63,998 bases of DNA, filler included, from Asterionella formosa (GCA_002256025.1; 7 parts of 7 records of this genome joined end to end with filler, not necessarily neighbours in it); one strand, 5' to 3'. Positions 534-56,264 are shown, numbered from the whole stretch's first letter. The notes: a model not told the origin generated them from the letters alone. Translations and numbers: made by a program.

Positions 534-734
534 GCAGGTTTAACTGTAGGAAAATCATTCCTTTAGAACTCTTACATATGCTGTAGTCCTAGGTACTTGT
601 AACATCCAATTTAATTTAACGACCTCGATACGTGTGGTCCACATAATTCTTCATCGTCTTTAATTTGCTGCTCAAAAGTATTGAGAGCAGGCAGGGTTTT
701 CCGTACCTGAAATTCCAATAACTGAAAAGGAAGC

Positions 735-1327
735 AAGTCTTCTCAATTTCACTTCGTCTGTAGCCTACGGTAGTAGCAACATTTTTTCAGTAGGTAAGGA
801 AAAATTCTAAATCCATTCCGGAATTTTGCTTATACCGGAATACCGGTACCAGGTAACTCTATGTTACATATCGTTATCATACTAAAATGACCCTCGGGGT
901 CATTTTTTTTTTTTCTAAACTTCCACCTTCTCCTACATAACGAAAAATTACGGACCAACGGCCGATAGTTTTCCAATAAATACACTGGATAAAAAGTATA
1001 AGAGCTCGTAATTTCTCAAAATGTCCTCATCAGTCATGAAACGTAAGATATTCATAAAAGATCCATCCTGTATTCTAAATAGAATATATTCAATCATAAT
1101 TAAAAATATATGACATATGATATGTGTAACTAAAAATATTGTTCGTACATACACAAAAGCCCTTTCATCACTACATCACGTATATGGTGAATATAATATT
1201 TAGTAGTGTATACAAACATATCCTGTATGACTGAAAAAATTTCCGGCATGATAGTGATGACAATGAATTTGGAGCCTGCATGTAGAATTCAACGACAGAT
1301 GGTAGAGACTCAAGAATTACAAACACG
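735..1327 (+). promoter_or_regulatory. Duplicated upstream region of kinase copy 1 (homologous to ~3831-4478), including hairpin AAAATGACCC-TCG-GGGTCATTTT at 884-906
   Basis: Shared blocks: TTCCGGAATTTTGCTTA, AAAATGACCCTCGGGGTCATT, GCTCGTAATTTCT..AAATGTCCTCATCA.TCATGAAACGT and CAAGAATTACAAACAC. Confidence 0.7.
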
Positions 1328-1397
1328 ACCCCAAAGAAAAAGACTTCATCGTATATTCGATAAAAACAACGAAATAAACAAAAACAAAGCAAACACG

Positions 1398-2907
1398 ATG
1401 AAAAATTCAATCATTGGTTCATTGTTCGAAAAGAATGATGCTCCAATTATGAATAGGCATGGCGCACGAGTAGCATTCCTTGAGAATGGACGCTGTCCTG
1501 ATCATCCAGACATTCAGCTTCGCAAAAAGAATGCTTTTGGTGTTTGGAAGACTGTGAAAGACAGCTGCCCTCATTGCGATCGTGAACGAATGAATACACA
1601 AGGGTCTCCTGCTCCAACGTTTCCGATGCCTGTCACTTCAATTTCGTCTCCGCCTGATGCGATAAGTGCAAACCAGATCTGCAATTCATCAGCAGCCATG
1701 ACAACTCTGCCAACAACAACAAATGATGATCATCTTCCTTCCCCTGCAACTCCAACACCAAGCTTTAGCAATTCATCTGATCCCATTTCTGACGGTTGGT
1801 TCAAAATGAAGGAAGCTATGGAGAATGAGAATTCCAGACCAATCGAGCTTCCTGTTGAATTCATTTATAGTTGTACAAACAACTTGAATGTTACCAAGAA
1901 ACTTGGTCAAGGAGCTTTTGGTGCTGTCTACAAAGGCGAGTATGGCAATCGGGTTTTTGCTGTTAAACGTATCCTTGATGGCATCGCTGTGAAGAAAGAT
2001 GAGTTGCTTGAAAAGACTGCCCCTTACCGTACAAATGTTAAAACTGAATTGGAGGTGAGCTCATTCGTGGTATCAAATATTTATGTTTTCAAGACTTTAT
2101 GTTTCTCATTCTACTGTCATACTGTTTTAGGCATTAACGAGGTTCCAACACCCCAATATTGTATCCTTGTATGGCTATCATTTGTCCCCTGATTCGTCTA
2201 ATCAATTCCTTGTATATGAGTATGCATCCAAGGGTTCTCTTGATAAATTTTATGAGAGTGAACGAAATAGATCATGTCTCTCGAGTAAGATCCGATTTCA
2301 AGTTATGTTCGAAATTATTTCTGCCATCCACTTCCTTCATACTGATACAAAGGATAACTTCATTCTGTATCATCGTGACATAAAATCGGCTAATATCTGG
2401 CTTTCAAATAACTATACTGCCAAACTGATTGATTGTGGCCTTGCCAAGTTTGTGCCTGTCGATGACTCATTTTCTACCAATGCAATTTCGAGCGCAGTTC
2501 GGAATTCATCCAATGGTGTAGTCTTTGGGACACCTGGCTACACATGTCCATTTTATTCAAAGGGAGGTAAAACATTTGAAGCATCATGTGATGTTTACTC
2601 ATTTGGGATTGTCATGATTGAGCTTGTGACAGGCTGCCTTCAAAATGATAGGACAAAGTTGGGAGATTTCTCTGAATGCTACTTCCCAAATGATTTTGAT
2701 GGAACTCCAGCAGAGGCATTGAAATTGGCAATTCCAAAATTGGTAGAGGATGCTGATTCTGAAGCAGAATGGGAAGATGGAATTCTGTTCTCTGTGTGCT
2801 CATTAGCCATTCGTTGCATTCAGAAGAATCGCGAGAAAAGGCCAAAGACTCTTGAATTGGTTAAAAAGTTGGGTCAACTTGCAAGGCCAACAGATCATGT
2901 TGAGTGA
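1398..2907 (+). CDS. IRAK/Pelle-like Ser/Thr protein kinase, copy 1, with N-terminal CxxH...CxxC Zn-ribbon-like module. Exons 1398-2054 and 2131-2907.
   Basis: Kinase motifs GQGAFGAVYKG, FAVKR, HRDIKSAN, DCG, GTPGY and DVYSFG. A phase-0 GT..AG intron at 2055-2130 joins TELE to ALTRFQHPNIVSLYGY. The N-terminus is CPDHPDIQLRKK..W..CPHC followed by an S/T/P linker. Confidence 0.85.
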
Positions 2908-4575
2908 TGTGAATCACCACAAATGATAATTGCCTTTGACAATCCTAACATGAATGAAAGCATTTAACAATGTGTTTTGTGTGCCAACAATTCTACTTTG
3001 TGGGAATTGCAATGCAAAGCTGATATAGGCATTGTTATCGAAAATAAACATACTGCAAAGTTCTGTAGTAATGATAAGTATATGAAGAGCCATGAAGATA
3101 GAGACTCTCAAGGGGAAGGTGTTGGAGGTTATAAAGACTCCGGGTAACATTGAGAGTCTGATGAGTCAAGTTGTAAAATGTTTCATGGGACTGACAGTGG
3201 GATCAAAATTAGTTGGAGTAGAAGTCTTGAATTGTATTTGGTAAGATTGAATTTTTACAGGATTAAGTTTGGCAGGACCAGTTGGCAAGATTGATAGTTT
3301 AGATATAATTACAATTAGTTCACAATCTGAGAAAACTTGACTTGAGTAAGGTAGTCTTTGGAGCCCTTCAACACAGTATGTTACCCACATATTGACCCAT
3401 TGGGACAATCGCATCGTGAAACATTCCTTGAATTGTGCACAAAATCGCTGGCATTGAATGCAGGACAATTGGCAGGAGGTACACCCATTGACGAGTTTTT
3501 AGCTTTGCGAATGGTGCAAGTTGGGTGATGGTGCGTGCAAGAGTTTCTATCTCATGTTGCTTCAAGAAACTTCGCCAGTCACCTGCCGCTTCGCTTACAG
3601 CCAGCGGTCCCGCTCTTGACTCTCTATGGCGTATTTGCCTCCTCACGGCCGACAACGAGAATGTTGCAGCTCAATCAATGAAAGATCTCCTTGCTGTGGT
3701 CATGTGGACCATCGTCTGCCGCTTCTGAACAGATGCAGATTGACAAAATAGATGACTATCGTTAATGAAACAACACAGATGCATTCATGATAGCGGGTTG
3801 ATCGTGAGACAGAAACATGGTACCAGTAAGCAAGTCTCACTTTCACTTTGTCTGGGAGGCTTTTGTATCAACATTTTTTCAGTACGAGTGGAAAGGGAAA
3901 AATTCTCAATCCATTTCCGGAATTTTGCTTAGCAGAATACCGGGTAAGCTAAAATGACCCTCGGGGTCATTAATCTATGTCAAAAACTAATAAATGTACC
4001 TGTAGTACTGATACCAGTGTACCAGTACACTGTTTGTATAAAAAGTGTAATTAATACTAGCTCGTAATTTCTGAAAATGTCCTCATCAATCATGAAACGT
4101 TTTCATACAAGAAGATCCATTATATGTATTCAATATAAGTTTATATTCTGATATGAAATATTGATAAATATCGCTAGATGATATGTTTGACTAACAATAT
4201 TGTTTTTTATCATTTACACAAAACCCCTTTCAACACCATATTTTATTGCTCATATATTGCACATATCACGAAGGGCATATGTATGTATGTACAAACAGAT
4301 ATGATCATGGACAAAAGTTCCGGCATCATGGTGATGACTGAAAATAAAGCAATTTAGAGCTCTCATGTAGAACTCAACGACATCAGTTGGCATAAAAATA
4401 TATCTCAAGGACACTTTCGGTTGGTAGAGAAATTATTTCGGGTACTATGATGGACAGGAGTCAAGAATTACAAACACTAACACATGCAAATTTTGCAGGA
4501 GAGAGCGCGACAAGAATTTCGCAAGGTATACATAAAACAAAATATTTTTTGATGAATAATATTTTTCACTCCCCC

Positions 4576-4641
4576 TAGTTCAATCGTATACATACCGGTA
4601 GTTCAATCGTATACATATTGGTAGTCCAATCGTGTACATAC
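4576..4641 (+). repeat. 23-bp tandem repeat x3
   Basis: TAGTTCAATCGTATACATACCGG / TAGTTCAATCGTATACATATTGG / TAGTCCAATCGTGTACATAC. Confidence 0.8.
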
Positions 4642-4892
4642 GATCATCATCATGCATCTTATGTAGCTATATGTACTACATATTGGTACCGATTTTATGA
4701 GGGTGGACAAAATTTCCGGCATCTTCCATATATCATGTGGGAGGAATGAGTTGCATCGTAGAATTCTACGACAAGTGGTAGAGACACTATTTTAGCAGAA
4801 TTCAATCACGACAACGATAACGACAACGACGACAAGAACCAAACAAAGAAGTCGCACGAATAAACCTCATTACATTCAAGACGACATTGACA

Positions 4893-6444
4893 ATGCTAAA
4901 AGCTTTTCGTCGAAAGAAGGAAGAAACAGAATTGGAGAAATCTGTCAAACGGTTGAAAGCGAATGATCCAAGTTTGACTGAACTTAATCTCTTTAAATAT
5001 TCAATTGGTAATGACGTAGCCAAGGCCATTGCAGAGGCTCTCAAGGTCAATACTGTCTTGACTACACTTTCTCTCTTTAGTAATTCAATTGGTGATGAAG
5101 GAGCCAAGGCCATTTCAGAGGCTCTCAAGGTCAATACTGTCTTGACTACACTTAATCTCGGAAGTAATTCAATTGGTAAAGTTTTACTATATGAAATTGA
5201 AATACTGGTTGATACAAACAAGAACCGCATAGCAACAGCAGCCAACACAACTGATTTCATTTCTGAAGGTCGATCGAAAATGAAGGAAGCTATGGACAAT
5301 GTGGATTCAAGACCAATCGAGCTTCCTAAGGAATTCATTATTAGTTGTACAAACAACATTGCTGCCTTGAAACTTGGTCAAGGTTCTTTTGGTGCTGTCT
5401 ACAAATGCAGGGATGACAATCGGGATTTTGCTGTGAAATGTATTCATTTCCATTTAGTTTTTTTGGAAGATAAGAAAAAAGAAATTATTAAGAGTTTTGA
5501 AAACGAATTGCAGGTAAGCTCATCCGTAGTATTATCTATTACAGGTTGTCTAAGTCTTTTATGTTTCTGATTCTTCCATCATACTGTTTCAGGTATTAAA
5601 GAGGTTCCAACACCCTCATATTGTAACTTTGTATGGCTATCATTTGTCCCCTGTTTTCTCTGATCAACACGTGGAATCTGATCAATACCTGGTGTATGAG
5701 TTATTATCCAATGGGTCACTTGATACATTCTATAAGAGTGAACAAAAAAGATCAAGTCTCTCAAGTAAGATCCGACTTCGAATCATGAACGAAATTATTT
5801 CTGCCATCTACTTTCTTCATAATATAAAACCGGATGGCCACACTCTGTTTCATCGTGACATCAAATCAGCTAATATCTGCCTTGATCAGAACTATACTGC
5901 CAAGCTTATTGATTGTGGCTTAGCCAAGTTTGTGCCTAAGGGTAGTTCAGTCAAAACCAATCCAATTCCTTCCTCAGTTTGTTACACAGCAGGTGATGGA
6001 ACATATGGGACACCTGGCTACATATGTCCATTTCATCTTAAGCCTAAACCATTTGAAGCAGCATGTGATGTTTACTCGTTTGGCATGGTCATGATTGAGC
6101 TTGTAACAGGCTGCCTCCAAAATGATAAGACAAGGTTGGGAGATTTCTCTGAACGCTACTTCCCAAATGATTTTGAAGGAAATGCAGCAGAGGCAGTGGA
6201 GGAGGCAATTCCAAAATTGGTAAAGGATGTTGATCCTCTAGCAGAATGGGAAGATGGAGATCTGTCCTCGGTTTGTACATTAGCCATTCATTGCATTCAG
6301 AACAATCGCACAAAGAGACCAACAACTAATGAATTGGTTGAAAAGTTGTGTCAACTTGTAAGTGCCACAGATCATAATGGGGGATGTGAATCACCACAAA
6401 TGACAACTGCCTTTGACAATTTTAACCTGAATGAAAGCACTTAA
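4893..6444 (+). CDS. IRAK/Pelle-like Ser/Thr kinase, copy 2, with N-terminal RNI/NLRC3-like LRRs. Exons 4893-5513 and 5593-6444.
   Basis: 28-aa LRRs (SIGDEGAKAISEALKVNTVLTTLNL; 84-bp period at 5001/5085/5169) with an RLKANDPSLTELNL cap. Kinase motifs GQGSFGAVY, AVK, HRDIKSAN, DCG and GTPGY. The phase-0 intron at 5514-5592 is at the same position as in copy 1. Confidence 0.85.
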
Positions 6445-6446
6445 CA

Positions 6447-7400
6447 ATGTGTCTTGTGTGCCAAGATTCTACTTTGTGGGAATTGCAATGCAGAGCTGAT
6501 ATAGGCAATGCAACAATTATCAAAAATAATTATAGTGAACAAGTGAAGTTGATCAGATTGTACCTTTATAATTATTTTGAGCTAGTTAGTCTAACACGTC
6601 CCAAACAACCATACAGTGGAAATACTGGAACAATGAATGTGAATGAAAGTACTGTACTATATCTTGTGTTTGGCAAAGGTTCTACTTCTGTTTCCGTGTG
6701 CAAAGATCATTTCACATGCAGACAATGCTTTGAGGATCATGTCTATATGCATCATGGTGATATGACCATTTAGTGCCCAATCAATGGTTGTGACAAGTTC
6801 TTTTCTAATACAGACATGATCCAGAGCCAGATCTTGTCTAGCAACCTGTATGACCTTCATGTGAAGAAACAAGATGAAAATGAGAAATGGTCCAAACTCT
6901 TGCAAAACCAAAAAGAATTTCTGGAGAAGATGTCTCATCTAGACTCACGAGTTACAAAGGCCATTGCTAATCTTACTGCTGGAGTAGAGGCAATGTATCC
7001 CATAATTGTCTATATTGTACCACTCAATGAAAAAGGGGAACCAATCTGGAAATGGCCAAAACTTTGGATAAAAAACGAAGTTCAGATATTCTTTGTTTGT
7101 CAGCACTCAGGCGTTGATTTTTAAGAAGCCTGTTTTACTATGCATGTTACCAGGAAGTGGGTGACAGATGTTGCACCTGCTATCAGATGTGCTATGTTTC
7201 TTCTAAAAGTTGCAGCACCTATTGGTAAAATTTCAGCTGGTATTGATTTTCCAATTCCAATGGAATCAATTGAGAAATTAGCCAATAAATTAATTAGTGA
7301 TCTCCTTAAAGACAAGCTTGATAAAATCTTTTCAAGCAAGCCTATTCTTGAGTTTGGATTGGAAGAAGCTAAGTCCTCCAATTGTTGGACCATCGTATGA
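6447..7400 (+). pseudogene. Decayed C-terminal extension of kinase copy 2: RING-like finger, coiled coil, TORNADO1/ROCO C-terminal-like region
   Basis: ORFs 6447, 6816 and 7140 share one frame broken by TAG (6771) and TAA (7122). It reads C-x2-H-x2-C-x2-C...*CP-x3-C, then a heptad-like stretch, then YPIIVYIVP..W..QIFFVCQHS..KWVTDVAPAIR. Confidence 0.55.
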
Positions 7401-8400
7401 TAAAAATTCTGAAAATGCTCATAGGGAAAAGAATTTTGTTTCCTTTCTGTATTTTGAATATCATTTCTTATGGGTGGAGAAATTCCAAGGTTACTTTGTG
7501 ATCCAGTTTTCTCCCATCACAATATTTATTGATTTTGGGAACATGACGCACATCTAAGCTGCGAAATGCGCCCTTTTTCGAAATTTCGTCTACGTACCAG
7601 TGTAAATTATGTGGTACTTCACATGCATTAATGCCACTCTTCACGTAAAAAAGATTACTTTTAACGGTTTCATGTGAAATCTTAACTATTGCATGTGAAG
7701 TTTTCACAACGAATTTTGAAAGCAAGACTGAATTAGTTGATTTTCAAATAATTTATTTGAAAGTTCAACTAAGATCATGCTCTTGAGGCTAATTCAGCAT
7801 TCACGACATGCATCTTCCATTGTGAAATAGTAAGGATATTTGTGTTTTCTAATGTCATGCATCTGAGATCAAAGTTTTACAATTGTACACATCACATAAA
7901 GAACTCACGCATTTCCGGTAAAAAAGCTCACTCTCCCCATTTTTCATGTAATGTAGGATACTACCGGTACTAGGTAACTGTACTACTAGCTTGCTACTAG
8001 CTACTTCTGGTAGTAGGCAACCCAATATTTTTACATGATTATTATTACTCAAAATCAACACTGCTGGAATCATGTCTGCTGACAAGGATGACATTGTTTG
8101 CCAAAGAATATCTTGCAAGAATATCATGACGCTAACAAACATCTCTTTTATAAATATCCTGATGCAACAACACAACTTGAAGTGTAGATGGTGATGGTGT
8201 GAAATTCATGTCCATCTCCATGTTGATGGATCCTTCTGTATGCAAAATGAACCAGTATACAAAACGAGCATCACCATGTATGTATCAAATCAGGGAAAAA
8301 TCCATTTAGAAGAGTATCAACGAAAATTCCAACTATAAGTTTAACAAACCCTACCCTTTTATTGATAACCAAAACATAACAGTTACATAATTACAAAACT

Positions 8401-8984: not shown

Positions 8985-9195
8985 TGAATGCAATATCAAA
9001 AGATGAAATGCAAAATTATGACTACGTGATATATTATTCTACTGTAGGTAGGTAGGACAGACGGTTCAGCTGTAAACCACACTGACACCCCCCCCNNNNN
9101 NNNNNNNNNNNNNNNNNNNNNNNNNNNNNNNNNNNNNNNTTAATTAATTAANNNNNNNNNNNNNNNNNNNNNNNNNNNNNNNNNNNNNNNNNNNN

Positions 9196-9494: not shown

Positions 9495-10763
9495 CTATTT
9501 GTTCTCGTATTGAATCCACAAGTGCTCAATCAAATTGTTACGCAATTGAAAGTGTTCACCTTCACTCATGTAGTTCATTCTAATATTCTTGAAATCAAGA
9601 AATGTGTGTAAATTGTCATGATTCACGTTGTCAACCAAGAATCCATCCTGAATATTGTCAAATAGATATTCATTTGTATTTTCAGTTTCCCATTCATCCT
9701 CTATGATCATGTTGTGCAAAATGATGCATGCAATAATTACACTGTTCATAGCACCCACTGACCAAAGTTTACATGGAAGTGCAAGGATCCTCCACCTGGC
9801 CTGTAGAACTCCAAATGCTCGCTCAACATCCTTGCGCTGTGCCTCCTGACGCATCGAGAAATAACTCCGTTTTGGACCTTGTGGCTCTGAAATTGTCTTG
9901 ACAAATATATGCCAATTTGGGTAGATTCCGTCAACCAAATAATACCCCAGATTGTGTTGTTGGTTGTTGATGGCAAACTGTACTTTTGGAGTCCTTCCAG
10001 CTGACAAATCATGGAAAAACGGTGAACGATCCAAAATATTAAGATCATTGTTTGCCCTGGGCATTCCAAACCATGCATGCCAGAACCAAAGTCTACAATC
10101 AACCGTAGCTTCCAAAGCAATTGTCGCCACTCCTTCTTTTACTTGATATGCTCCTCTGTGTGCTTTGGGACAGTTTTTCCACTCCCAATGCATGACATCC
10201 AATGAACCAAAAAGACCCGGCCAACCCTTTCCTTCATGCAAACGTAGAATCATCTCAAGGTCCTCTTTGGTCAGAGCTCTAAGATAATCTTTCCCATACC
10301 TGTTGATTATTGCGTTACAGAAGTGTTGCAAGTTGTTGAGTGTTGTTAACTCTGACATCCTTGTTAAATCATCCAACTGATCAGCCGATGTTCCATAGGC
10401 TAACATGCGAAGCGCCAAGGTAAGTTTTTGGTGTGGCGAAAATCCCAGTAAACCCAAGGCATCCTTCTTCTGAGAAAAGTAAGAATCCGAAGAAACCAAA
10501 TCATCAAGAATCTTCTCAAACAACGAACGTCTCATCCGGAAGCGCCTCCTGAACATTGCTGACGAGTAAATCGGATTTTCACCGAAATAATCCTTTTTCA
10601 AAAGCTTGTCATAGTCTATCCGAAAACGATTGAGATTGGATGCCTTTCCCACCTTTGATCCTCCTCCCTTGTTTCTTTCTTGCTTGGCATTCTCGCGTTG
10701 CTTCCGAATATCGCGGAAGTGGAAGAAGCGATCGTCATCTGACGAGTCGCTATCATTGCTCAT
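9495..10763 (-). mobile_element. PIF/Harbinger transposase (Plant_tran / ALP1-HARBI1-like), intact 422-aa ORF
   Basis: FRRRFRMRRSLF, ALRMLAYG, GSLDVMHWEWKNCP, NNDLNIL, YYLVDGIYP and RKDVERAFGVLQARW. The catalytic D/D/E residues are present. Confidence 0.93.
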
Positions 10764-11110
10764 TTTCGCTGTGTCGAAACGTAAAAGTCATATTTATTGG
10801 TAATTATAAAGAAGCCACAATTCTCTACGAACAATATTCAAGTACATAGTTGTAATATTTTTTGATGGGCAGTACCAGATAGTACCGGTAGGAGTATTGC
10901 TACCTGTTTAAGAATAAGGTATGTATGCGGCTACTTTATGAATTAAAAGCGATACACACGAAACTACAGTCTACCTTTATTTCTATTGGCTAATAATTTA
11001 GGCGCGAGATTTGACTAATATAAGATTTGGTCGATGCGGTGGAAAAAAAAATTCGACTATTGATAAAAAAATTCTCGACCAAGTGACGTGTATTGATATT
11101 TTCAACTGCA

Positions 11111-16270: not shown

Positions 16271-17353
16271 ATTGCCGGCACGTGGTACCAGGGAAGCGGT
16301 CTGGTACTGTGAACAGACGAAAGAAACGGAAAATCAAGAGCAATGCCTTTTAAACTTTATGCCTCTGTGTCGATCGTGGATGTTCCTCGGTCTTTAGATG
16401 GCATCGAAGTCCATCCCATGTACCGGTATCAGTTATAGTATAATGATGAATTCAAATATTTGTTGCTGCCAAATGATTTATGGTCGGAAATAATTTCTCG
16501 CAGACAAGAGGAGGAGGACACCGTCCGGAATGTCGATGTTGTACTGGGTACACTTGACACTCCTACCAGGTATAGATGCGACCTATCAACAGCAAGTTGA
16601 AGCAAGGTGAGAAACGTATGTTGCTTTGTTTCCCTTCACTAAAACCGTCTTCTAAAGCAACTCCAATGTACCGTATGTTTGTACGAGCTACCAGCGTGCC
16701 CCAGGTCGTAATCTTCTACCTAACAACGATACCAGCGGTACGACCTGACTTATTCATGGTGTAGTTAGTAATGTACTTGTAATCCATAGCAATAATTTTA
16801 ACACTCATTCCATACTGTACATGCAAATATTTTCTACTACGACCGGTATGCTTATGTAACGATATGTGAGTAGCCTTGACCTATCTACACTTGTCAAGGT
16901 GAATACTTGGACGGGTGGCAACCCTGGTACCTACTCAATCTTGGTCTAAATGACCACAACTGAGATGCCTGCCTAATATTTCGCTTCCAGGAGGTTCTAA
17001 TCTTAAATACATAGAGTTTACAGTCATGATCTCCGAGATCGGACATTCGGTCATCGATCATTTCTATTTTGTGACGTTTATGGTTTTGTCGGCGATACAT
17101 ATGTTTACAAGAATGTCCGATCTTTCGCATTTATTTCACACACAACTATTTATTGTAGCAGTTTATTTGTTTTAAACGGCGACAAATCGATTGTTTTGAA
17201 TCTTATTTGAAGGTCGTTGCTGCAAACATACGATCACTTCTTTAAGTTTCCAAACTGACAGCAGTCGTTCATTCAAAACGAAATATTGGCCCACTGCAAG
17301 ATCTCAAAACAAACTCACAATAAGTAAGGTATTCTCCTTCATCAATAGTAGTC

Positions 17354-18286
17354 ATGAACCTTCTGGTTGCTCTGTTGTTGGCATTTTCAACAGTCAGTGC
17401 GCATACCGTTCCGCGTGTTTATGATGGAAGAAGAACAGTAGTGGATCCTAATTGTTGCTCCTATAACTTGAAAGACTGCTATTATGCCTCGAAGGACGCC
17501 AATTGGTGCGCTATGACTTGGCAGAACTGTGTGAAGTGTACAGGCTCGTGGATCAATCCTGCAAATCGCACTACATGCATTCCTCTTTGGGGTGACTGTA
17601 CAAGTCTTCCGGAAAGTTTAGAACGTACCGTCAACGATACATGCTGTGGACAATCTACCTGTACGCGAGTCACCCAGTGGTACAAGCAATGTCAACCTCC
17701 TCAGTTCTGTTGCTCGTGGGATTTGGCTTCGTGTGGCGACAGCAAATGGTGCAACCAAAATGCACAGAATTGCGGTGTCTGCAACGGCTTCTTCCTTGAC
17801 CCAAGCACTCGTCGATCATGTACTCCTCGCTGGACTGGATGCACTGCATCAAGTGAATGCTGTACTGGAGGAGTTTGTGTTACTGATGCAACTGGCTGGA
17901 AGTATTGCGATGTCCCTTTGAATGGTCAACCAACTCTCCCTCCGACCAATGCACCTCCATCAACTCTTTCGCCAACCAAATCACCAACTCTCCCTCCAAC
18001 CAAATCACCGACTCTTCCTCCAGCCAATACACCTCCATCTACTCTTGCACCAACCAAATCACCTACTCTTGCACCAACCAATACACCTACCCTTCCGACT
18101 CCTCCGACCACATCTCGTCCAACAACAAAGCCTACAGCATCCCCTACTGGTGTACCCATAAATTTTGGACCTGTTCCAGCAGGCCCTTTCATCACTGTTT
18201 CCTCTACAAGAATCACTATCCCCAATCCAGCAAATCCTGTTGTCTCAGGTAGAACGCTGTGTCCTCATCTTGACACTGGTATTCTC
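17354..18286 (+). CDS. Secreted Cys-rich protein with CBM1-like modules and P/T-rich linker, 3' truncated by gap
   Basis: Signal peptide MNLLVALLLAFSTVSA, two CCS.L..C..WC..QNC..C.G modules, a CBM1-like WGDC...TC...QWYKQC segment, and PTKSPTLPP repeats. The frame is open into the N-gap. Confidence 0.75.
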
Positions 18287-18927
18287 NNNNNNNNNNNNNN
18301 NNNNNNNNNNNNNNNNNNNNNNNNNNNNNNTTAATTAATTAANNNNNNNNNNNNNNNNNNNNNNNNNNNNNNNNNNNNNNNNNNNNACCTGGTACTGGTA
18401 GCTCACCTAGTACACACCACTGCGATGATACTTTGAAGTCAACCGGCATCAGGTACCAGGGTACCTGGTACCAGATATGTGCATATTAGCAATACACATA
18501 GCGGGAAATCAACCAAATATGTAATTTTCATAGTTTATCATAAGTACAGTTTCTTATTATTTTAGGAGCCGTTTCAAGCGACCACTTTAAATTTCAATCA
18601 CATCATCTATTTGATTTATGCATGATCCCAGTGTTTGTCCCATTAATATTGGTTAGGAGTTCCTCACTTTTTCCTCTTGCTTCGCACAATTTCAATTTTC
18701 GCATCAGAATCAACTGACGAAACTGTAAGTCTCGACAGCTGTCCCCTCCATCGTGGCAACTAAATTCATGATATCTCATGTTTGCTAGACCAGCCGGGAA
18801 CTGTCTACAGGTTCAAATCGTTGTAACACTCGCTCCTGCTCACTCTCTAGCCTGTTTTGTACATAACAGCATATTTTCTTCAGTTCAATTTCGAAATATA
18901 ATCAAAATCTAGAATATTTGCTAAAAT

Positions 18928-30107: not shown

Positions 30108-31628
30108 CTACACCACGTATCCTGTAGAGTTGTTGTTTCGCTTACGGAGTGAGCGTCGCCCTTCACAAAAAATGGCATCACTGCCACACCAACCAAATTG
30201 ACTGCAGCACAAGGTGGAGTCAGGGCAGTTACCGTCACCCCTTGCACCATTTCCACATGTGCCAGCAGTGGGTGTAGGATCACTAGGAGGTGCTGAACCA
30301 CAGTAGGCTTCACCAATACCACACCAGCCAGCTTCACTGCAGCACAAAGAGGGGTCAGGGCAATTTCCGTCACCCCTTGCACCATTTCCACATGTGCCAG
30401 CAGTGGGTGTAGGATCACTAGGAGGTGCTGAACCACAGTAGGCTTCACCAGTACCACACCAGCCAGCTTCACTGCAGCACAAAGTGGGGTCAGGGCAGTT
30501 TCCATCACCCCTCTGGGCATTGCCACATGTACCAGCAGTTGGGGGTGTAGGGTCACTCGGAGGAGTAGGTATATTGGGTCCCTGATTTGTGCAAGTGGCG
30601 GAAGTTACTGCACTGACCGGAGTTGACCATTCAGTATTAGTGTCATATTCACTCGACCAAAAAAATGCTCCTCCATTGCATGAATAGGCTTCCTTCAATT
30701 TATTCATTATATCCGCTGCTTGGTCTCCATTAGAATTAAAGTTTGGACACCCATTAATGCAAAACCCAAACACTACCTTGGTCGGATCACCTCCAAAGAA
30801 GTTATCCACAAGGCCTTTATAGTGTGCAATAGTCGATTGCGGGAAATCTGTGCTTGTTCCACTAAGTCCATTTGCGATAGGATTTGCGAAACCCATGTAA
30901 TACTGGACATTGAGGAAACTGAGTGAGGATGAAACACTTTTGAGAGCTTCATAGTAGCTTTTGCCTGGTATCAGGTCTCCATCTCGGGGCGTATGAGAAA
31001 CAATACTTCCATCGGGAAGACTAGCACGAAGGCCAGTTGTGATCTTCTTGAGAAAGTCCTGTTGTGCCGTTGTTTCCGTATAGTATTCATAATCGATATC
31101 AACACCATCAAATCCTTGATCTCTAACGATATTATTGAGTTGGCTGACAACCGAATCTTCTTTGCCAAAGCAATCATCCCAACATTTATTTCTTTGCGGG
31201 TCTTCCCAGGTACCTCCCATGCCCGCTCCACCAAATGATACTACCACCTTTTTACCTGCTGCCTTCCACGCTGCCACAAGCTCGGGTTGAGCTTTATTAT
31301 CACAGACAACAATAGGGGTAATCGTGCAAGTGCGGTCGCAAATGTTTGCATCTTCATTGTAAACATATGTCGCAGCAAAAGACAGCATGATATGCGTATA
31401 TTGAGCTGTTTGCTCTGCTGTTGGACAGGGTTTCCAGCCAGGCACATAAGCAATTAGGCGACTATCGGTCTCTTGCATTTGAAGCACACGGGAATCATTC
31501 TCCCAGGCATCCTTGTCAGAAATCGGAAGGACGCTGCTACGAAGATTTGTTTTTATCATGGTTTCTTTCACTTCATGTCCCTTGGTTGGAACTGATAACA
31601 AGCAAGCCAAGAAGGCAACTGCTTTCAT
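30108..31628 (-). CDS. Secreted GH18 chitinase with three C-terminal hevein-type (CBM18) chitin-binding repeats
   Basis: Signal MKAVAFLACLL (an upstream start is possible), VVVSFGG and the catalytic FDGVDIDYE. There are 45-aa repeats CGN..RGDGNCPD..LCCS..GWCG..C with a 135-bp period. Confidence 0.9.
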   Translation of the reverse strand: MKAVAFLACLLSVPTKGHEVKETMIKTNLRSSVLPISDKDAWENDSRVLQMQETDSRLIAYVPGWKPCPTAEQTAQYTHIMLSFAATYVYNEDANICDRTCTITPIVVCDNKAQPELVAAWKAAGKKVVVSFGGAGMGGTWEDPQRNKCWDDCFGKEDSVVSQLNNIVRDQGFDGVDIDYEYYTETTAQQDFLKKITTGLRASLPDGSIVSHTPRDGDLIPGKSYYEALKSVSSSLSFLNVQYYMGFANPIANGLSGTSTDFPQSTIAHYKGLVDNFFGGDPTKVVFGFCINGCPNFNSNGDQAADIMNKLKEAYSCNGGAFFWSSEYDTNTEWSTPVSAVTSATCTNQGPNIPTPPSDPTPPTAGTCGNAQRGDGNCPDPTLCCSEAGWCGTGEAYCGSAPPSDPTPTAGTCGNGARGDGNCPDPSLCCSEAGWCGIGEAYCGSAPPSDPTPTAGTCGNGARGDGNCPDSTLCCSQFGWCGSDAIFCEGRRSLRKRNNNSTGYVV

Positions 31629-32966
31629 ATTGTTATGTCCAACAAACATTATTATCTGTATGGGTTTTTCAATGGAGGTTAGGTGGTTTTGTGAGAGGCT
31701 TAGCTTTTTCAATGAAGAATCTTTGGTTTTGTGAGATTATATGGCTAATGGTTATTAAATTCTACGAAGTACAGGATTGATGATGGCCCCATTGAAGGGA
31801 TGATGTATGACTTAATAATCATGACCTGTATGAACCATATCATGAGTGAAATAGTTTGATCTGAACAATGATTACATGTGCGACTTGACTACCTGGTTTT
31901 GCCGGTACCTGGTATGGTACCATGTAGTAATATTGAGTACGGTACCTGGTATCGCTACATGCATAATATATGGTAAGGTATGATGTCGAGAACTACTGTA
32001 TGAATTATTTGTGAGTCATTGGTCTGTTTCTATTTATAATACGGATGTTTCAATCATGTGGTAACATCGTAATATTTGACATCAGCCATTGTACGACTCG
32101 ATCATGACTCGCGGAAGGATGATACGAATGCATGATGGTGGGGGATGATGAGTTGCATTTCAGTTTTAACGGACAGTTTGACATTTACGTAGGTCAGATA
32201 TGACCAGGGTACATACAATATCTTATATTCCGCACACGAGTGAACCACAGGACGGAATCCAGAATCCGTTCATATGCCATACTTGATGTCGAAATTAACA
32301 GAACGACATCATTATTTCTATCATATATACATATTTAAAAATAAAATTTTGTTCAAGGAGCATGGTGATATGGTACCACCTAAAAACTGAGAGTCATACA
32401 AACTTTCAGTTGTGTACTGATAGTCGTAACAAAATGGGATAATCACACGGTTTGAGACAAATATTTGTAATAGTATAAATCTGTATTAGACAAAGTTCTT
32501 CCTGTGCATGTAAGGAACAGCATTGTTCGTACTTGAACACTGCAATCTCGTACCAGTTCTTTAGTTAAAGTAGCCCAAAATTGGCTGTCGACGGTTTTTG
32601 GTCCAAATCAGTTTTACCCCATTGAGCCTGCATGACTTTTTCAACACATAGGAGAAGCTGAAGCTATATAAATAATTAGCTTGTTTCAAGACTTTTCGTC
32701 CGCATCATTACTATGGCATGTTTGCGCCATTGCAATTAAAGTTGTGCGCCATAAAAACTCGTTTATTTAGAGTTGTTTAAGCGCTGGTGCGCCAATAAAT
32801 AAACCTTATAACCTAGTGGTACCTGGTACTGGCATGATAGACTACTAGTAAACCAGCACTGCGGCTGGTATGCATGACATAAAAACAAGCCTACAAATCC
32901 AACTTGTAAGTTTCACAAGCAATATACAATTATTTGCGGAGTCATCGTTGAGACACTATAGTCATC

Positions 32967-37442: not shown

Positions 37443-39276
37443 TACATGTGGTTCAAGTATGGATGGCGTAATTTTACAAGACCGACATGCTGCAGCTGAT
37501 CAGGGGCAGGTGAGTAAATTCAATTCAACCAATCAGAATATGTGTAATGATGCGGGAACTTACCCTGGAGTCTTTTCGGACAGAGAATTATTCAGCAAAA
37601 CATACCTACGCAAGACTCTAAGTCTACGAGAACGTTTTTGCACGTACTAATTCCGATTCCAATATTTTAGCGAGCGACTGTTGAAAAAACCGATCGGGTC
37701 GACTTTTTGGAAGAGGATTGCTCTACATCTACGGAGGTTTCATGACGATTAAAATAGATAGCAGCCGTGTACCCTATAACGTCAGGAGTTAACTTCTGGA
37801 GAGAAGTGGGAGTTATGTATCGTAGATTTTTTGAAAAGCTTCGTAGCCCCTTTTTTTGACTATTTTTGCGTTAGTTACGAATCTATGATACATAACTGCC
37901 ACTTCTCTCCAGAGATGGGGTCCTTACCATATCTGTATATAGATCATACCCCTAAGTCGCGAAATGACAGTATCTAAGCATATGCAAAGTGGTCGTAATG
38001 GTGAAAACTAATTTTACCTTTAACTATTTTATTTACTTGTACGTGATGTGTGGATTGAGGTACATCATAAAAAATTTTGGGAAAGAACGAACCTCGCAAT
38101 TTGTAACTGCGGGGCCGTAACCTTAAGTACCGGGTACCTGGTACGTACTTCGAGTACCACCAAAAAACTGAGTGTCAATTTTTGAAAAAATTTGAACTGA
38201 AAGTCAACGTTAAAACGAGTAAATTCAGTAAATTCATGTTTTGGACGAAATATGCTAGATGCGAACATAATTATTCAGGCAATGTTGTAGCGATTTATAT
38301 ACTAACCAATAATAATCGTGCTTTGAACATGTCAATTAGGTTGTGTTACTTCCGTATTTAGTCCTTGCAGTTGACGAGAAATGGAATTAAAAAGATAAAT
38401 AAGTTTTTTATTNNNNNNNNNNNNNNNNNNNNNNNNNNNNNNNNNNNNNNNNNNNNNNNNNNNNNNNNNNNNNNNNNNNNNNNNNNNNNNNNNNNNNNNN
38501 NNNNNNNNNNNNNNNNNNNNNNNNNNNNNNNNNNNNNNNNNNNNNNNNNNNNNNNNNNNNNNNNNNNNNNNNNNNNNNNNNNNNNNNNNNNNNNNNNNNN
38601 NNNNNNNNNNNNNNNNNNNNNNNNNNNNNNNNNNNNNNNNNNNNNNNNNNNNNNNNNNNNNNNNNNNNNNNNNNNNNNNNNNNNNNNNNNNNNNNNNNNN
38701 NNNNNNNNNNNNNNNNNNNNNNNNNNNNNNNNNNNNNNNNNNNNNNNNNNNNNNNNNNNNNNNNNNNNNNNNNNNNNNNNNNNNNNNNNNNNNNNNNNNN
38801 NNNNNNNNNNNNNNNNNNNNNNNNNNNNNNNNNNNNNNNNNNNNNNNNNNNNNNNNNNNNNNNNNNNNNNNNNNNNNNNNNNNNNNNNNNNNNNNNNNNN
38901 NNNNNNNNNNNNNNNNNNNNNNNNNNNNNNNNNNNNNNNNNNNNNNNNNNNNNNNNNNNNNNNNNNNNNNNNNNNNNNNNNNNNNNNNNNNNNNNNNNNN
39001 NNNNNNNNNNNNNNNNNNNNNNNNNNNNNNNNNNNNNNNACAATAGAATTTTACGATTCCCCTGAATTCTCAATGGAGTCAAATTGGGAGGAAAATAGAG
39101 GATTAGCATACAATTTTCAGTCTGAAAAGACAAAATGTGTTGTAAGTGCCCTGGTACCAGGGTATCTTCGAGTTTGCACATGTAAAGTGCTTCATGTGAC
39201 GTCATTTTCATAAGAAGTGTTAAGTTTAGAAATCATCAAATGCCACTTCAAAAATGCACGAAGAAACAAATATATG

Positions 39277-55305: not shown

Positions 55306-56264
55306 CTCAGATTCTGAAACTCATCTGACTTCATGCTGCGAATCCCATTTCCTTTTGATCTGATTCTATTTTTTCTATCTTGATTTCCTAATCATAACAA
55401 CAATGAGAAGGAATTACTCGCTTGTTAGCCATGTTTTGTTTATTTCTCAACACTGCAGTCCCATTTTAGCTTGCTCCACTTACCAGAAATCGATAATTAA
55501 GCCCCTCAATTAGCGGGAGTCATACGAAATTATTCATATGGTACAAATCATAAAATATTTACCAGTAGATGAATCGCTCGAATCAATCTTTATGATTTAC
55601 AGATCATAGAAACGAAAGAGAAACGAATGTCTCTGTCTAACGATATAGATCTATCCAATAAAGGTGATACTTTAACAAAAGTTGCGGTCATTTTGCCGAA
55701 ACTGGAACGCGGCGCCGGAAGGCACTCAAATTCAACTCCTCCGGTAATATTACTTAGAAATTTAGAAGATTCTAACCATTTCGTGCTGGCCAATTAATGT
55801 CAAAAATATCAAAATCTAAAAATTTTGAAGAAAGATTTTCTGAAAAAAGTTTCCGAACCTTGCTCCGATTGGAGGGGGTTCGATTTGGGGTTTTTGAATT
55901 GGGGGGGGGGGTTCCTCCCCCGTCACAATTGAATGTCAAGACTCCTTATTCCAGAAATCTCCTCGTTGTTCTTCATCTACATTATTTAGTATACTACCGG
56001 TGTGTATGAATGTACAGAAGTGCAAACTACAAGCAAACCGGTATGATGTGCATCATATGGTCAATGTATCATCGTAGCTATGTTCTTTATTCAATATTAC
56101 GCATCATGCTGGTGGTGATGTATGCATCAATGTAACCCTATCGTGATATCACATTATCATCTTATCAATCAATCAATGTTGATTGGGAACTGTCTTCTGC
56201 ATCTTACTATGGAGTATGATATTATAACACGCACTTTAGTAGCTAAGTCACTGCTGTAATGTAC

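Follow-up and report, generated by a model that had tools for sequence, protein, structure and literature searches.

Tandem, putatively truncated genes of an RLK/Pelle-like cytosolic kinase family with variable N-terminal modules in the diatom Asterionella formosa

The described proteins closest to the kinases presented here are the plant receptor-like cytoplasmic kinases (RLCKs), the IRAK/Pelle kinases, the RBR ligases, the plant protein KEG and the transmembrane leucine-rich repeat (LRR) kinases of stramenopiles. In Arabidopsis, KEG is built of a RING, a kinase, ankyrin repeats and HERC2-like repeats. The perception of parasites (chytrids, oomycetes, viruses), bacteria or mates by diatoms is a largely unknown field. 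One published study mentions transmembrane LRR kinases in Thalassiosira pseudonana and Phaeodactylum tricornutum, and states that an IRAK-like kinase was not detected in T. pseudonana (PMC3019232). Here, two neighbouring genes, named g1 and g2, are described from a window of 63,998 nucleotides (nt) of Asterionella formosa (GCA_002256025.1), the window being the whole stretch of DNA that was analysed, in which seven parts of seven records of the genome are joined by filler. Comparison with their relatives makes it rather probable that g1 and g2 are tandem, truncated and likely active members of a large, fast-evolving family of cytosolic Ser/Thr kinases of the receptor-like kinase (RLK)/Pelle(IRAK)-like type. 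The family is apparently restricted to diatoms and apparently undescribed, and literature searches covering articles exclusive of their supplements returned no description of it. What is new is a candidate signalling family that follows a clear modular grammar, includes a C-terminal domain not characterised before and shows signs of evolving very fast. Of greater note is the family architecture itself, which includes a domain of unknown fold, and of which g1 and g2 would be shortened derivatives.

The two genes lie head to tail on the plus strand and encode products of 477 and 490 amino acids (aa), respectively (Table 1). The tandem arrangement was confirmed, with a similarity between the copies far in excess of chance. 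In BLASTN, 1774-3055 aligned with 5248-6537 at 78.4% identity over 1312 columns, intron included (E 0), and the similarity extends about 150 nt past both stop codons, which the initial annotation had missed. The spliced products are identical at 224 of 361 residues (62%; BLASTP, E 5e-148), in agreement with the closely similar kinase domains reported at first, and every gap in this alignment is in frame. Likewise, the common phase-0 intron was found at a homologous codon, after ELE in g1 and after ELQ in g2, with 55 of the 76 aligned bases identical (72%). The upstream DNA said to be shared by the genes was recovered as two BLASTN matches, 728-846 with 3825-3943 (78%, E 7e-18) and 1003-1297 with 4059-4382 (69%, E 2e-24), and the similarity was carried on to about 1327/4478 in a MAFFT alignment. 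No third copy of the kinase-gene unit was found within the window by BLASTN. The conserved ATGTCCTCATCA (1021) might mark a mini-exon further upstream, but this is doubtful, as its GTAAG donor is not conserved in copy 2 and no support for it was found.

Both proteins retain the residues expected of a working kinase. The motifs of g1 are GQGAFG (residue 170), FAVK (187), TELE (216), HRDIKSAN (300) and DCG (320), and those of g2 are GQGSFG (162), FAVK (179), HRDIKSAN (294) and DCG (314), with ENELQ aligned to the TELE of g1 in alpha-C. The glycine loop, the beta-3 Lys, the alpha-C Glu, HxDxKxxN and DxG are all present, and APE is replaced by CPF. In an alignment of 26 kinases of the family, HxDxKxxN retains its H in 26, its D in 25, its K in 25 and its N in 26, and the D of DxG is present in all 26; DFG is written DCG in 22 and DYG in 4, APE takes the form CP(W/F), and the HRD Arg is lost in six, to C four times, to H and to G. 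Since every catalytic residue is kept, g1 and g2 are most likely active soluble kinases.

In a PDB sequence search, among the best 60 of 69 matches, rows 1-47 were plant RLK/RLCK or IRAK1/4 (5e-19 to 8e-15), the first other kinase was CTR1 at row 48, and NEK2 occupied rows 59-60. Among named proteins, the nearest are kinases of Fragilaria crotonensis (43-54% identity); plant RLK-Pelle proteins come next, at about 30%, and unnamed metagenome proteins are up to 92% identical to g1. The stretch ahead of the glycine loop (IELPVEFIYSCTNNL..KLGQGAFGAVYKG) resembles the lead-in of IRAK4 and plant RLKs, '..EL...TNNF....G.GGFG.VYKG'. The first assignment of the genes as IRAK/Pelle-like holds in that their nearest solved relatives are RLK/RLCK and IRAK kinases; in the strict sense it does not, because no death domain was found in g1 or g2 (Pfam, N-terminal parts up to E 10). 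Judged by their nearest relatives, they would belong to the wider RLK/Pelle/IRAK group, as RLCK-like members. The relatives came from a search of 1.84 billion representatives, and Pfam scans were carried out on 51 single-kinase relatives (below, proteins carry P numbers and loci L numbers). No NACHT or NB-ARC match was obtained by Pfam in g1, g2 or these 51, P0254 alone giving a weak AAA_16 match, beside CHAT.

Ahead of the kinase the two proteins are unrelated, as had been proposed. The N-terminus of g1 carries C33-x2-H36 ... C57-x2-C60, followed by a 63-residue linker with 33 S/T/P. It had no match among longer proteins and a single one, P0259, among proteins of similar length; in this metagenome protein the module is 51% identical over 72 residues and none of the four Cys/His is lost. 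The best Pfam score for this part was that of HMBD (E 0.068), an identity that was dropped as falling short of the threshold, and the best atlas score, 0.78, is under 0.9 and thus a lead only. In g2, residues ~21-104 form three 28-residue ribonuclease inhibitor (RI)-type LRRs (Pfam LRR_6, E 7e-12), of which there are none in g1. Two of the repeats are 87% identical in DNA (4974-5093 with 5058-5177, BLASTN), which points to a recent 84-nt duplication. The same LRR type stands ahead of a related kinase in P0233 and L002; the ratio of non-synonymous to synonymous substitution (dN/dS) of the LRRs between g2 and L002 is 1.46 over 95 codons, a value made unreliable by the repeat register and the frameshifts of L002. 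A hydropathy scan, used without a dedicated predictor, gave no transmembrane (TM) helix or signal peptide in g1 or g2, in line with the initial annotation: the Kyte-Doolittle mean over 19 residues peaks at 1.45, in a kinase C-lobe helix, and both N-termini are polar.

Protein similarity begins at residue 124 of g1 and residue 117 of g2, with the motif D.IS.G..KMKEAM. The abrupt resumption of similarity that had been placed near 1775/5250 agrees with the BLASTN start at 1774/5248; its sharpness is partly the product of a linker deletion in g2, because L002 and L003, relatives with LRRs and a kinase, still have a homologous counterpart of the S/T/P linker of g1 from ~1667. In P0009, P0023 and P0036, a second kinase domain is joined directly at the boundary, 'ATDFISEG..KMKEAM', and the downstream module of P0009 is 86% identical to that of g1. 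Multi-kinase proteins were also seen (P0121-P0127), together with other database proteins with 3-7 kinase stretches at ~30% identity; these and the three joined proteins may be true poly-kinases or merged tandem genes. DNA contigs switch between g1-like and g2-like segments with short sides, a weak hint of mosaic paralogs.

At the family level, sequence comparison supports variable N-terminal modules on one conserved kinase core. Among the 51 relatives, N-terminal ankyrin repeats were recognised in 10 (one weak, together with CHAT), RI-type LRRs in one (P0233) and Kelch in one (P0245), C-terminal CHAT in two and a Pfam-detectable RING in two; the kinase alone was recognised in 35, many of which have an unannotated extension of ~300 residues after it. 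The proposal of a modular family with exchangeable fronts at the KMKEAM boundary is thus upheld by ankyrin, RI-type LRR, Kelch or a second kinase in the relatives.

The C-terminal extension aligns to 6546-7382 of the window in 20 of the 28 relatives tested (tblastn). In P0052, P0008, P0025, P0079 and locus L001, the kinase reads directly on into a C3HC4 finger of the pattern C.LC..ST..S.C.DHFTCQQCFE.HV...G.MTI.CP..GC, with eight ligand columns conserved, and P0052 has, in addition, a long helix and a conserved domain, CP.IVYIVP...QIFFVCQHS...VT.KWV..VAP.IK...LLKVA. For the finger in a model of P0052, the best 10 rows of a structure search of PDB representatives were all RBR RING1 (Z 6.5-8.2), among them ARIH2 (8.2), RNF144A (7.8), HOIL-1L (7.6), parkin (7.0) and HOIP RING1 (6.5); the top Foldseek rows, HHARI and RNF144A, were weak (E 0.04 or worse). 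A C2H2 finger (ZBTB20 3.5e-08, YY1 1.3e-07) was rejected for P0052, since the His pair is missing and the fold fits RING1. The family proteins are not RBR ligases, because no IBR or RING2 follows the RING1-like finger in the 51 relatives scanned (Pfam).

Domain X, the C-terminal domain of ~200 residues, was modelled alone from L006 with a predicted local distance difference test (pLDDT) of 81.5 and a predicted template modelling score (pTM) of 0.77. It gave no structural match, the best Foldseek E being 0.29 and the best Z 4.8 among 48,161 chains, which is not proof of a new fold. For the finger-X part, the best atlas score was 0.81 (RING/IBR leads), likewise under 0.9 and a lead only. When a 588-position profile of kinase, finger and X was used, 28 of 259 stored proteins reached position 520 or beyond. 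Nine of the 28 lie outside the profile build, including the ankyrin-fronted P0137, P0142, P0189 and P0201, the Kelch-fronted P0245, and P0223 with an unknown 720-aa front; the LRR-fronted P0233 is among the sequences used to build it. In the metagenome scan, g1 alone retrieved no loci, and an alignment query retrieved 20.

Compared with this architecture, sequence evidence indicates that g1 and g2 are C-terminally truncated family members. Behind g1, the linker and the start of the finger survive as a relic to which P0052 and P0008 align through TGA and TAA (tblastn), and which is 88% identical to its g2 counterpart. The TAA is shared by g1, g2 and L004, and there is a sense codon at this place in P0052, P0008, P0025, P0079 and L001. 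Homology between the two genes breaks inside the finger at the same point, 3055 in g1 and 6537 in g2. Relative to the full-length relatives g1 has an extra, earlier TGA, at which P0001-P0003, its closest relatives (85-92% identical), also end, and the metagenome locus L004 is 88-93% identical to the 3' end of g2 with the TAA in common. The short form is therefore no private accident of this pair. An alternative code reading TAA/TAG as sense was rejected on account of the long standard-code open reading frames (ORFs) elsewhere in the window and the sense codons of the relatives at the stops. Equally rejected was an 80-nt intron (6358-6437, GTAAGT..AG) that would splice the g2 kinase to the finger frame, as P0052, P0008 and L001 are continuous there; no such joint is among the joints listed for RNA contigs.

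Downstream of g2 lies, in a single frame, a decayed family C-terminus, 51% identical to P0052 over 257 aa. It is interrupted in frame by TAG at 6771-6773 (Q or R in relatives) and TAA at 7122-7124, its first two zinc-ligand Cys are changed to Y and F where L004 keeps C and C, and its dN/dS against L005 is 1.04. Because 6784-7574 is missing from the L004 contig, the remnant appears to be further deleted in that related locus. Past the remnant, 7575-8029 resembles L004 875-1345 at 84% identity.

An element near the start codons occurs three times, at 1236-1309, at ~4310-4400 within the displaced old upstream block of g2, and at 4706-4785, with the pattern AAA.TTCCGGCAT ... GTAGAATTC.ACGACA..TGGTAGAGAC. 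A fixed-spacing pattern recovers only one of the three copies, since the spacing varies. By its position, the element may have a promoter role. Because the third copy sits before the g2 ATG, the LRR exon of g2 appears to have come with its own start region, which would fit recombination with an LRR-fronted paralog.

The reading that we favour can be put as a sequence of steps. In its usual form, a family member would have a variable front (ankyrin, RI-type LRR, Kelch or none) and the kinase, then a C3HC4 finger of the RBR-RING1-like kind, a long coiled coil and finally domain X. In the ancestor of g1 and g2, finger, coil and X would already have been lost, with the break inside the finger and the TAA just before it, and the truncated unit, promoter included, would then have been duplicated in tandem (78% nt identity now). 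N-terminal modules may have been exchanged by recombination among paralogs, the three LRRs of g2 arriving along with a copy of the start-proximal element. In the present proteins, the small N-terminal module, zinc-knuckle-like CxxH...CxxC or three LRRs, might pick the binding partner, and the kinases might act in an RLCK-like mode, possibly beside or in competition with full-length paralogs.

Expression of the pair is suggested by RNA-library contigs. X7, a polyA RNA library from the sample that also gave the best DNA match, has contigs that match g1 without mismatch across 1502-3303 in seven pieces (1502-1741, 1712-1865, 1899-2052, 2314-2601, 2621-2819, 2795-3016 and 2992-3303), of which 1712-1865 bridges the module-kinase junction and 2795-3016 includes the stop codon. 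For g2, RNA contigs from two studies, X7 and X10, show the intron removed (joint 5510>5590, cut +3). At the g1 intron, RNA contigs leave at 2052/2055 and 2129, with no g1 joint among those listed. The X7 bins that are not covered (700-1153, 3878-4785, 6602-7500) were not used as evidence on transcription starts or on silence of the remnant, since a lack of contigs proves neither. Between the genes, 3056-3877 is covered by RNA-library contigs continuous with the 3' end of g1 and by very many DNA-run contigs, and its ORFs have no Pfam match; given the RNA continuity and the heavy mapping of DNA contigs, either a repeated element or an extended 3' untranslated region is suggested.

Several observations weigh against active genes of this kind. 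The kinase dN/dS between g1 and g2 is 0.86 (dN 0.247, dS 0.289), and across the family it is 0.59-0.97 (14 of 21 pairs), far above typical kinases and compatible with decay. Among the best 40 of 196 variant rows, a selected list of population or paralog variants, 23 of the 25 best-supported positions in g1/g2 coding sequence are non-synonymous. Family loci contain stops (one in L001, three in L005, two in the window remnant), and L002, from a contig labelled 0.67x coverage, has at least two frameshifts. The RNA evidence consists of assembled contigs at 92% likeness or more, in which DNA carry-over is possible, and the listed g2 pieces carry mismatches, possibly from paralogs. The choice of partners and the interplay with full-length paralogs are our inference. 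Because the kinase dN/dS is near 1, relaxed constraint or decay has to be weighed against diversifying selection.

The initial annotation had gone further and proposed a candidate immune or surveillance system built on a cytosolic receptor-kinase family. On this reading, danger signals or signals derived from pathogens would be sensed by the modules and passed on by the kinase; finger, coil and X would also take part in full-length members, with g1 and g2 as variant sensors or decoys. The kinase type is that of plant and animal innate immunity, variable repeat fronts (ankyrin, RI-type LRR, Kelch) stand on a constant core, and tandem genes, mosaic-looking paralogs, pseudogenes and high dN/dS form the usual signature of birth-and-death receptor families. 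Loss of the HRD Arg, seen in 6 of the 26 relatives, is tied to pattern-recognition signalling kinases. However, the high dN/dS holds over the whole kinase and not in the repeats alone, the fronts are small for sensors (a 28-residue Cys/His motif in g1, three LRRs in g2), the C-terminal half of the family is missing from both genes, and mating and cell-cell recognition are also served by rapidly evolving families. We consider this proposal doubtful, and a sensor or immune label for g1 and g2, drawn by analogy, is not yet warranted and seems rather unlikely to hold. The same tentative standing is given to its broadest version, a diatom cytosolic surveillance class that would combine a swappable recognition module (ankyrin, RI-type LRR, Kelch or a zinc knuckle), an IRAK/RLK-like kinase, a RING1-like finger, a coil and a new-fold X. 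Birth-and-death, gene conversion and swaps of N-terminal modules would shape the evolution of such a class, and the truncated g1 and g2 would serve as RLCK-like relays or decoys. If true, it would be a kinase-centred counterpart of nucleotide-binding LRR (NLR)-type immunity in a major algal lineage.

Alternatively, g1 and g2 could be non-functional relics, recently disabled in a decaying tandem array and incidentally transcribed. The g1-g2 dN/dS agrees with this, as do the premature TAA common to both and the further TGA of g1, the adjoining pseudogene remnant with dN/dS ~1, and the stops in other family loci. Against it, the frames of 477-490 codons are intact, and under random substitution at the observed divergence a neutral simulation left the frame open in ~2% of trials per gene and in ~0.1% for the whole divergence (probability ~0.001), with indels all in frame. 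The catalytic residues are complete, the stop position of g1 is kept in three relatives at 85-92% identity, its Cys/His module is conserved in P0259, and exact g1 matches occur among contigs of a polyadenylated library. Relic status is thus improbable, and g1 and g2 are read not as dead copies but as coding genes whose constraint is weak or diversifying. Finally, it is very improbable that the differing N-termini are chimeras created by misassembly of a repeated gene family: the family is multi-copy, 9,801 of 30,436 DNA-run contigs fit two places in the stretch and some DNA contigs join g1-like to g2-like segments, but the g1 junction is bridged by the mismatch-free X7 contig already mentioned, the g2 junction by an RNA contig of another study (5191-5303, five mismatches), LRRs and kinase follow in the same order on L002, an independent metagenome contig, and the g1 module is independently present in P0259.

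Table 1. Positions in the window of the parts of g1 and g2, their upstream regions and the downstream relics.
Feature	Position	Strand	Basis and content
Shared upstream block, copy 1	728..1327	+	Non-coding, presumed g1 promoter region; BLASTN and alignment
Start-proximal element, copy before g1	1236..1309	+	~90 nt ahead of g1 ATG; three-way alignment
g1 exon 1	1398..2054	+	ORF and splice sites; Cys/His module ~1494-1577, S/T/P linker ~1593-1781
g1 exon 1, kinase part	from 1774	+	Kinase N-terminal extension and N-lobe
g1 intron	2055..2130	+	76 nt, GT..AG, phase 0; frame recovered only with its removal
g1 exon 2	2131..2907	+	Remaining kinase; TGA 2905-2907; Pkinase E 6.3e-26
Relic behind g1	2908..3055	+	Kinase-to-zinc-finger linker and finger start, CESPQM..NESI-TAA-QCVLC..STLWELQCK
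Shared upstream block, copy 2	3825..4478	+	~400 nt of inserted DNA separates the block from g2
Start-proximal element, third copy	4706..4785	+	~110 nt ahead of g2 ATG
g2 exon 1	4893..5513	+	Three RI-type LRRs ~4953-5204; kinase N-terminal extension and N-lobe from 5248
g2 intron	5514..5592	+	79 nt, GT..AG, phase 0
g2 exon 2	5593..6444	+	Remaining kinase and linker; TAA 6442-6444; Pkinase E 6.2e-29
Relic behind g2	6445..6537	+	Zinc-finger start; 1-nt deletion relative to g1, just past TAA
Decayed family C-terminus	6540..7400	+	Kinase tail, linker, RING1-like finger, coiled coil, domain X

Other features of the window were recorded beside the kinase cluster. About 2 kb past it, on the minus strand, 9495-10787 is an intact-looking PIF/Harbinger-type transposase ORF of 430 aa (Pfam Plant_tran 1.1e-79, DDE_Tnp_4). 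A GH18 chitinase-like ORF at 30108-31736, also on the minus strand, encodes a hydrophobic N-terminus as well as three chitin-binding domains of type 1 (Glyco_hydro_18 8e-13, Chitin_bind_1 1.7e-21); its product could target the diatom's own chitin or chitin-walled parasites. On the plus strand, the ORF at 17324-18334 combines a hydrophobic stretch at the N-terminus with repeated units rich in Cys and a tail rich in Pro and Thr that enters an N mask, with a weak Toxin_12 match only (Pfam, 9e-4). An inverted repeat pair of ~290 nt, 77% identical, lies at 260-533 and 55679-55967. Paired 44-N runs with 12 bases between them occur at 9096-9195 and at six further sites ~9.17 kb apart, and a single 627-N gap at 38413-39039; these N runs are masks or assembly gaps, not biology.

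Among the known systems, the plant RLCKs (BIK1, PBL2, RIPK) are soluble like g1 and g2, with no TM helix or signal peptide, and they have the closest kinase domain by sequence (ScRIPK 1.3e-18, PBL2 1.6e-17, BIK1 1.7e-16), BIK1 also being closest by structure in the C-lobe (Z 6.0). They likewise derive from larger receptor-type relatives via domain loss. In contrast, the proteins described here belong to a diatom lineage, are written DCG (22 of 26) for DFG and CP(W/F) for APE, and carry an N-terminal Cys/His knuckle and RI-type LRRs that are not found in plant RLCKs; their full-length diatom relatives carry finger, coil and X, not an ectodomain and TM helix. The likeness to IRAK4, IRAK1 and Pelle is also clear, by sequence (IRAK4 2.3e-16, IRAK1 1.4e-15) and in the C-lobe (IRAK1, Z 6.2), whereas the death domain is absent from g1 and g2 (Pfam) and a Myddosome-type partnership is unsupported.

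The remaining likenesses concern single parts or the overall layout. With the RBR ligases (ARIH1/2, parkin, HOIP, HOIL-1L, RNF144A), only RING1 is alike, in its C3HC4 spacing ending 'CP..GC'; unlike them, the 51 relatives have no IBR/RING2, and in g1 and g2 nothing of the finger remains but its first part, located behind a stop. KEG, compared by architecture only, unites RING, kinase and ankyrin in one polypeptide as the family does, but in another domain order, the family being without the HERC2-like part and KEG without domain X. Lastly, the transmembrane LRR kinases of stramenopiles (diatoms, oomycetes) join LRRs to a kinase of the tyrosine kinase-like (TKL) type, as in g2; whereas those are membrane receptors with extracellular LRRs, the LRRs here are RI-type and the proteins soluble.

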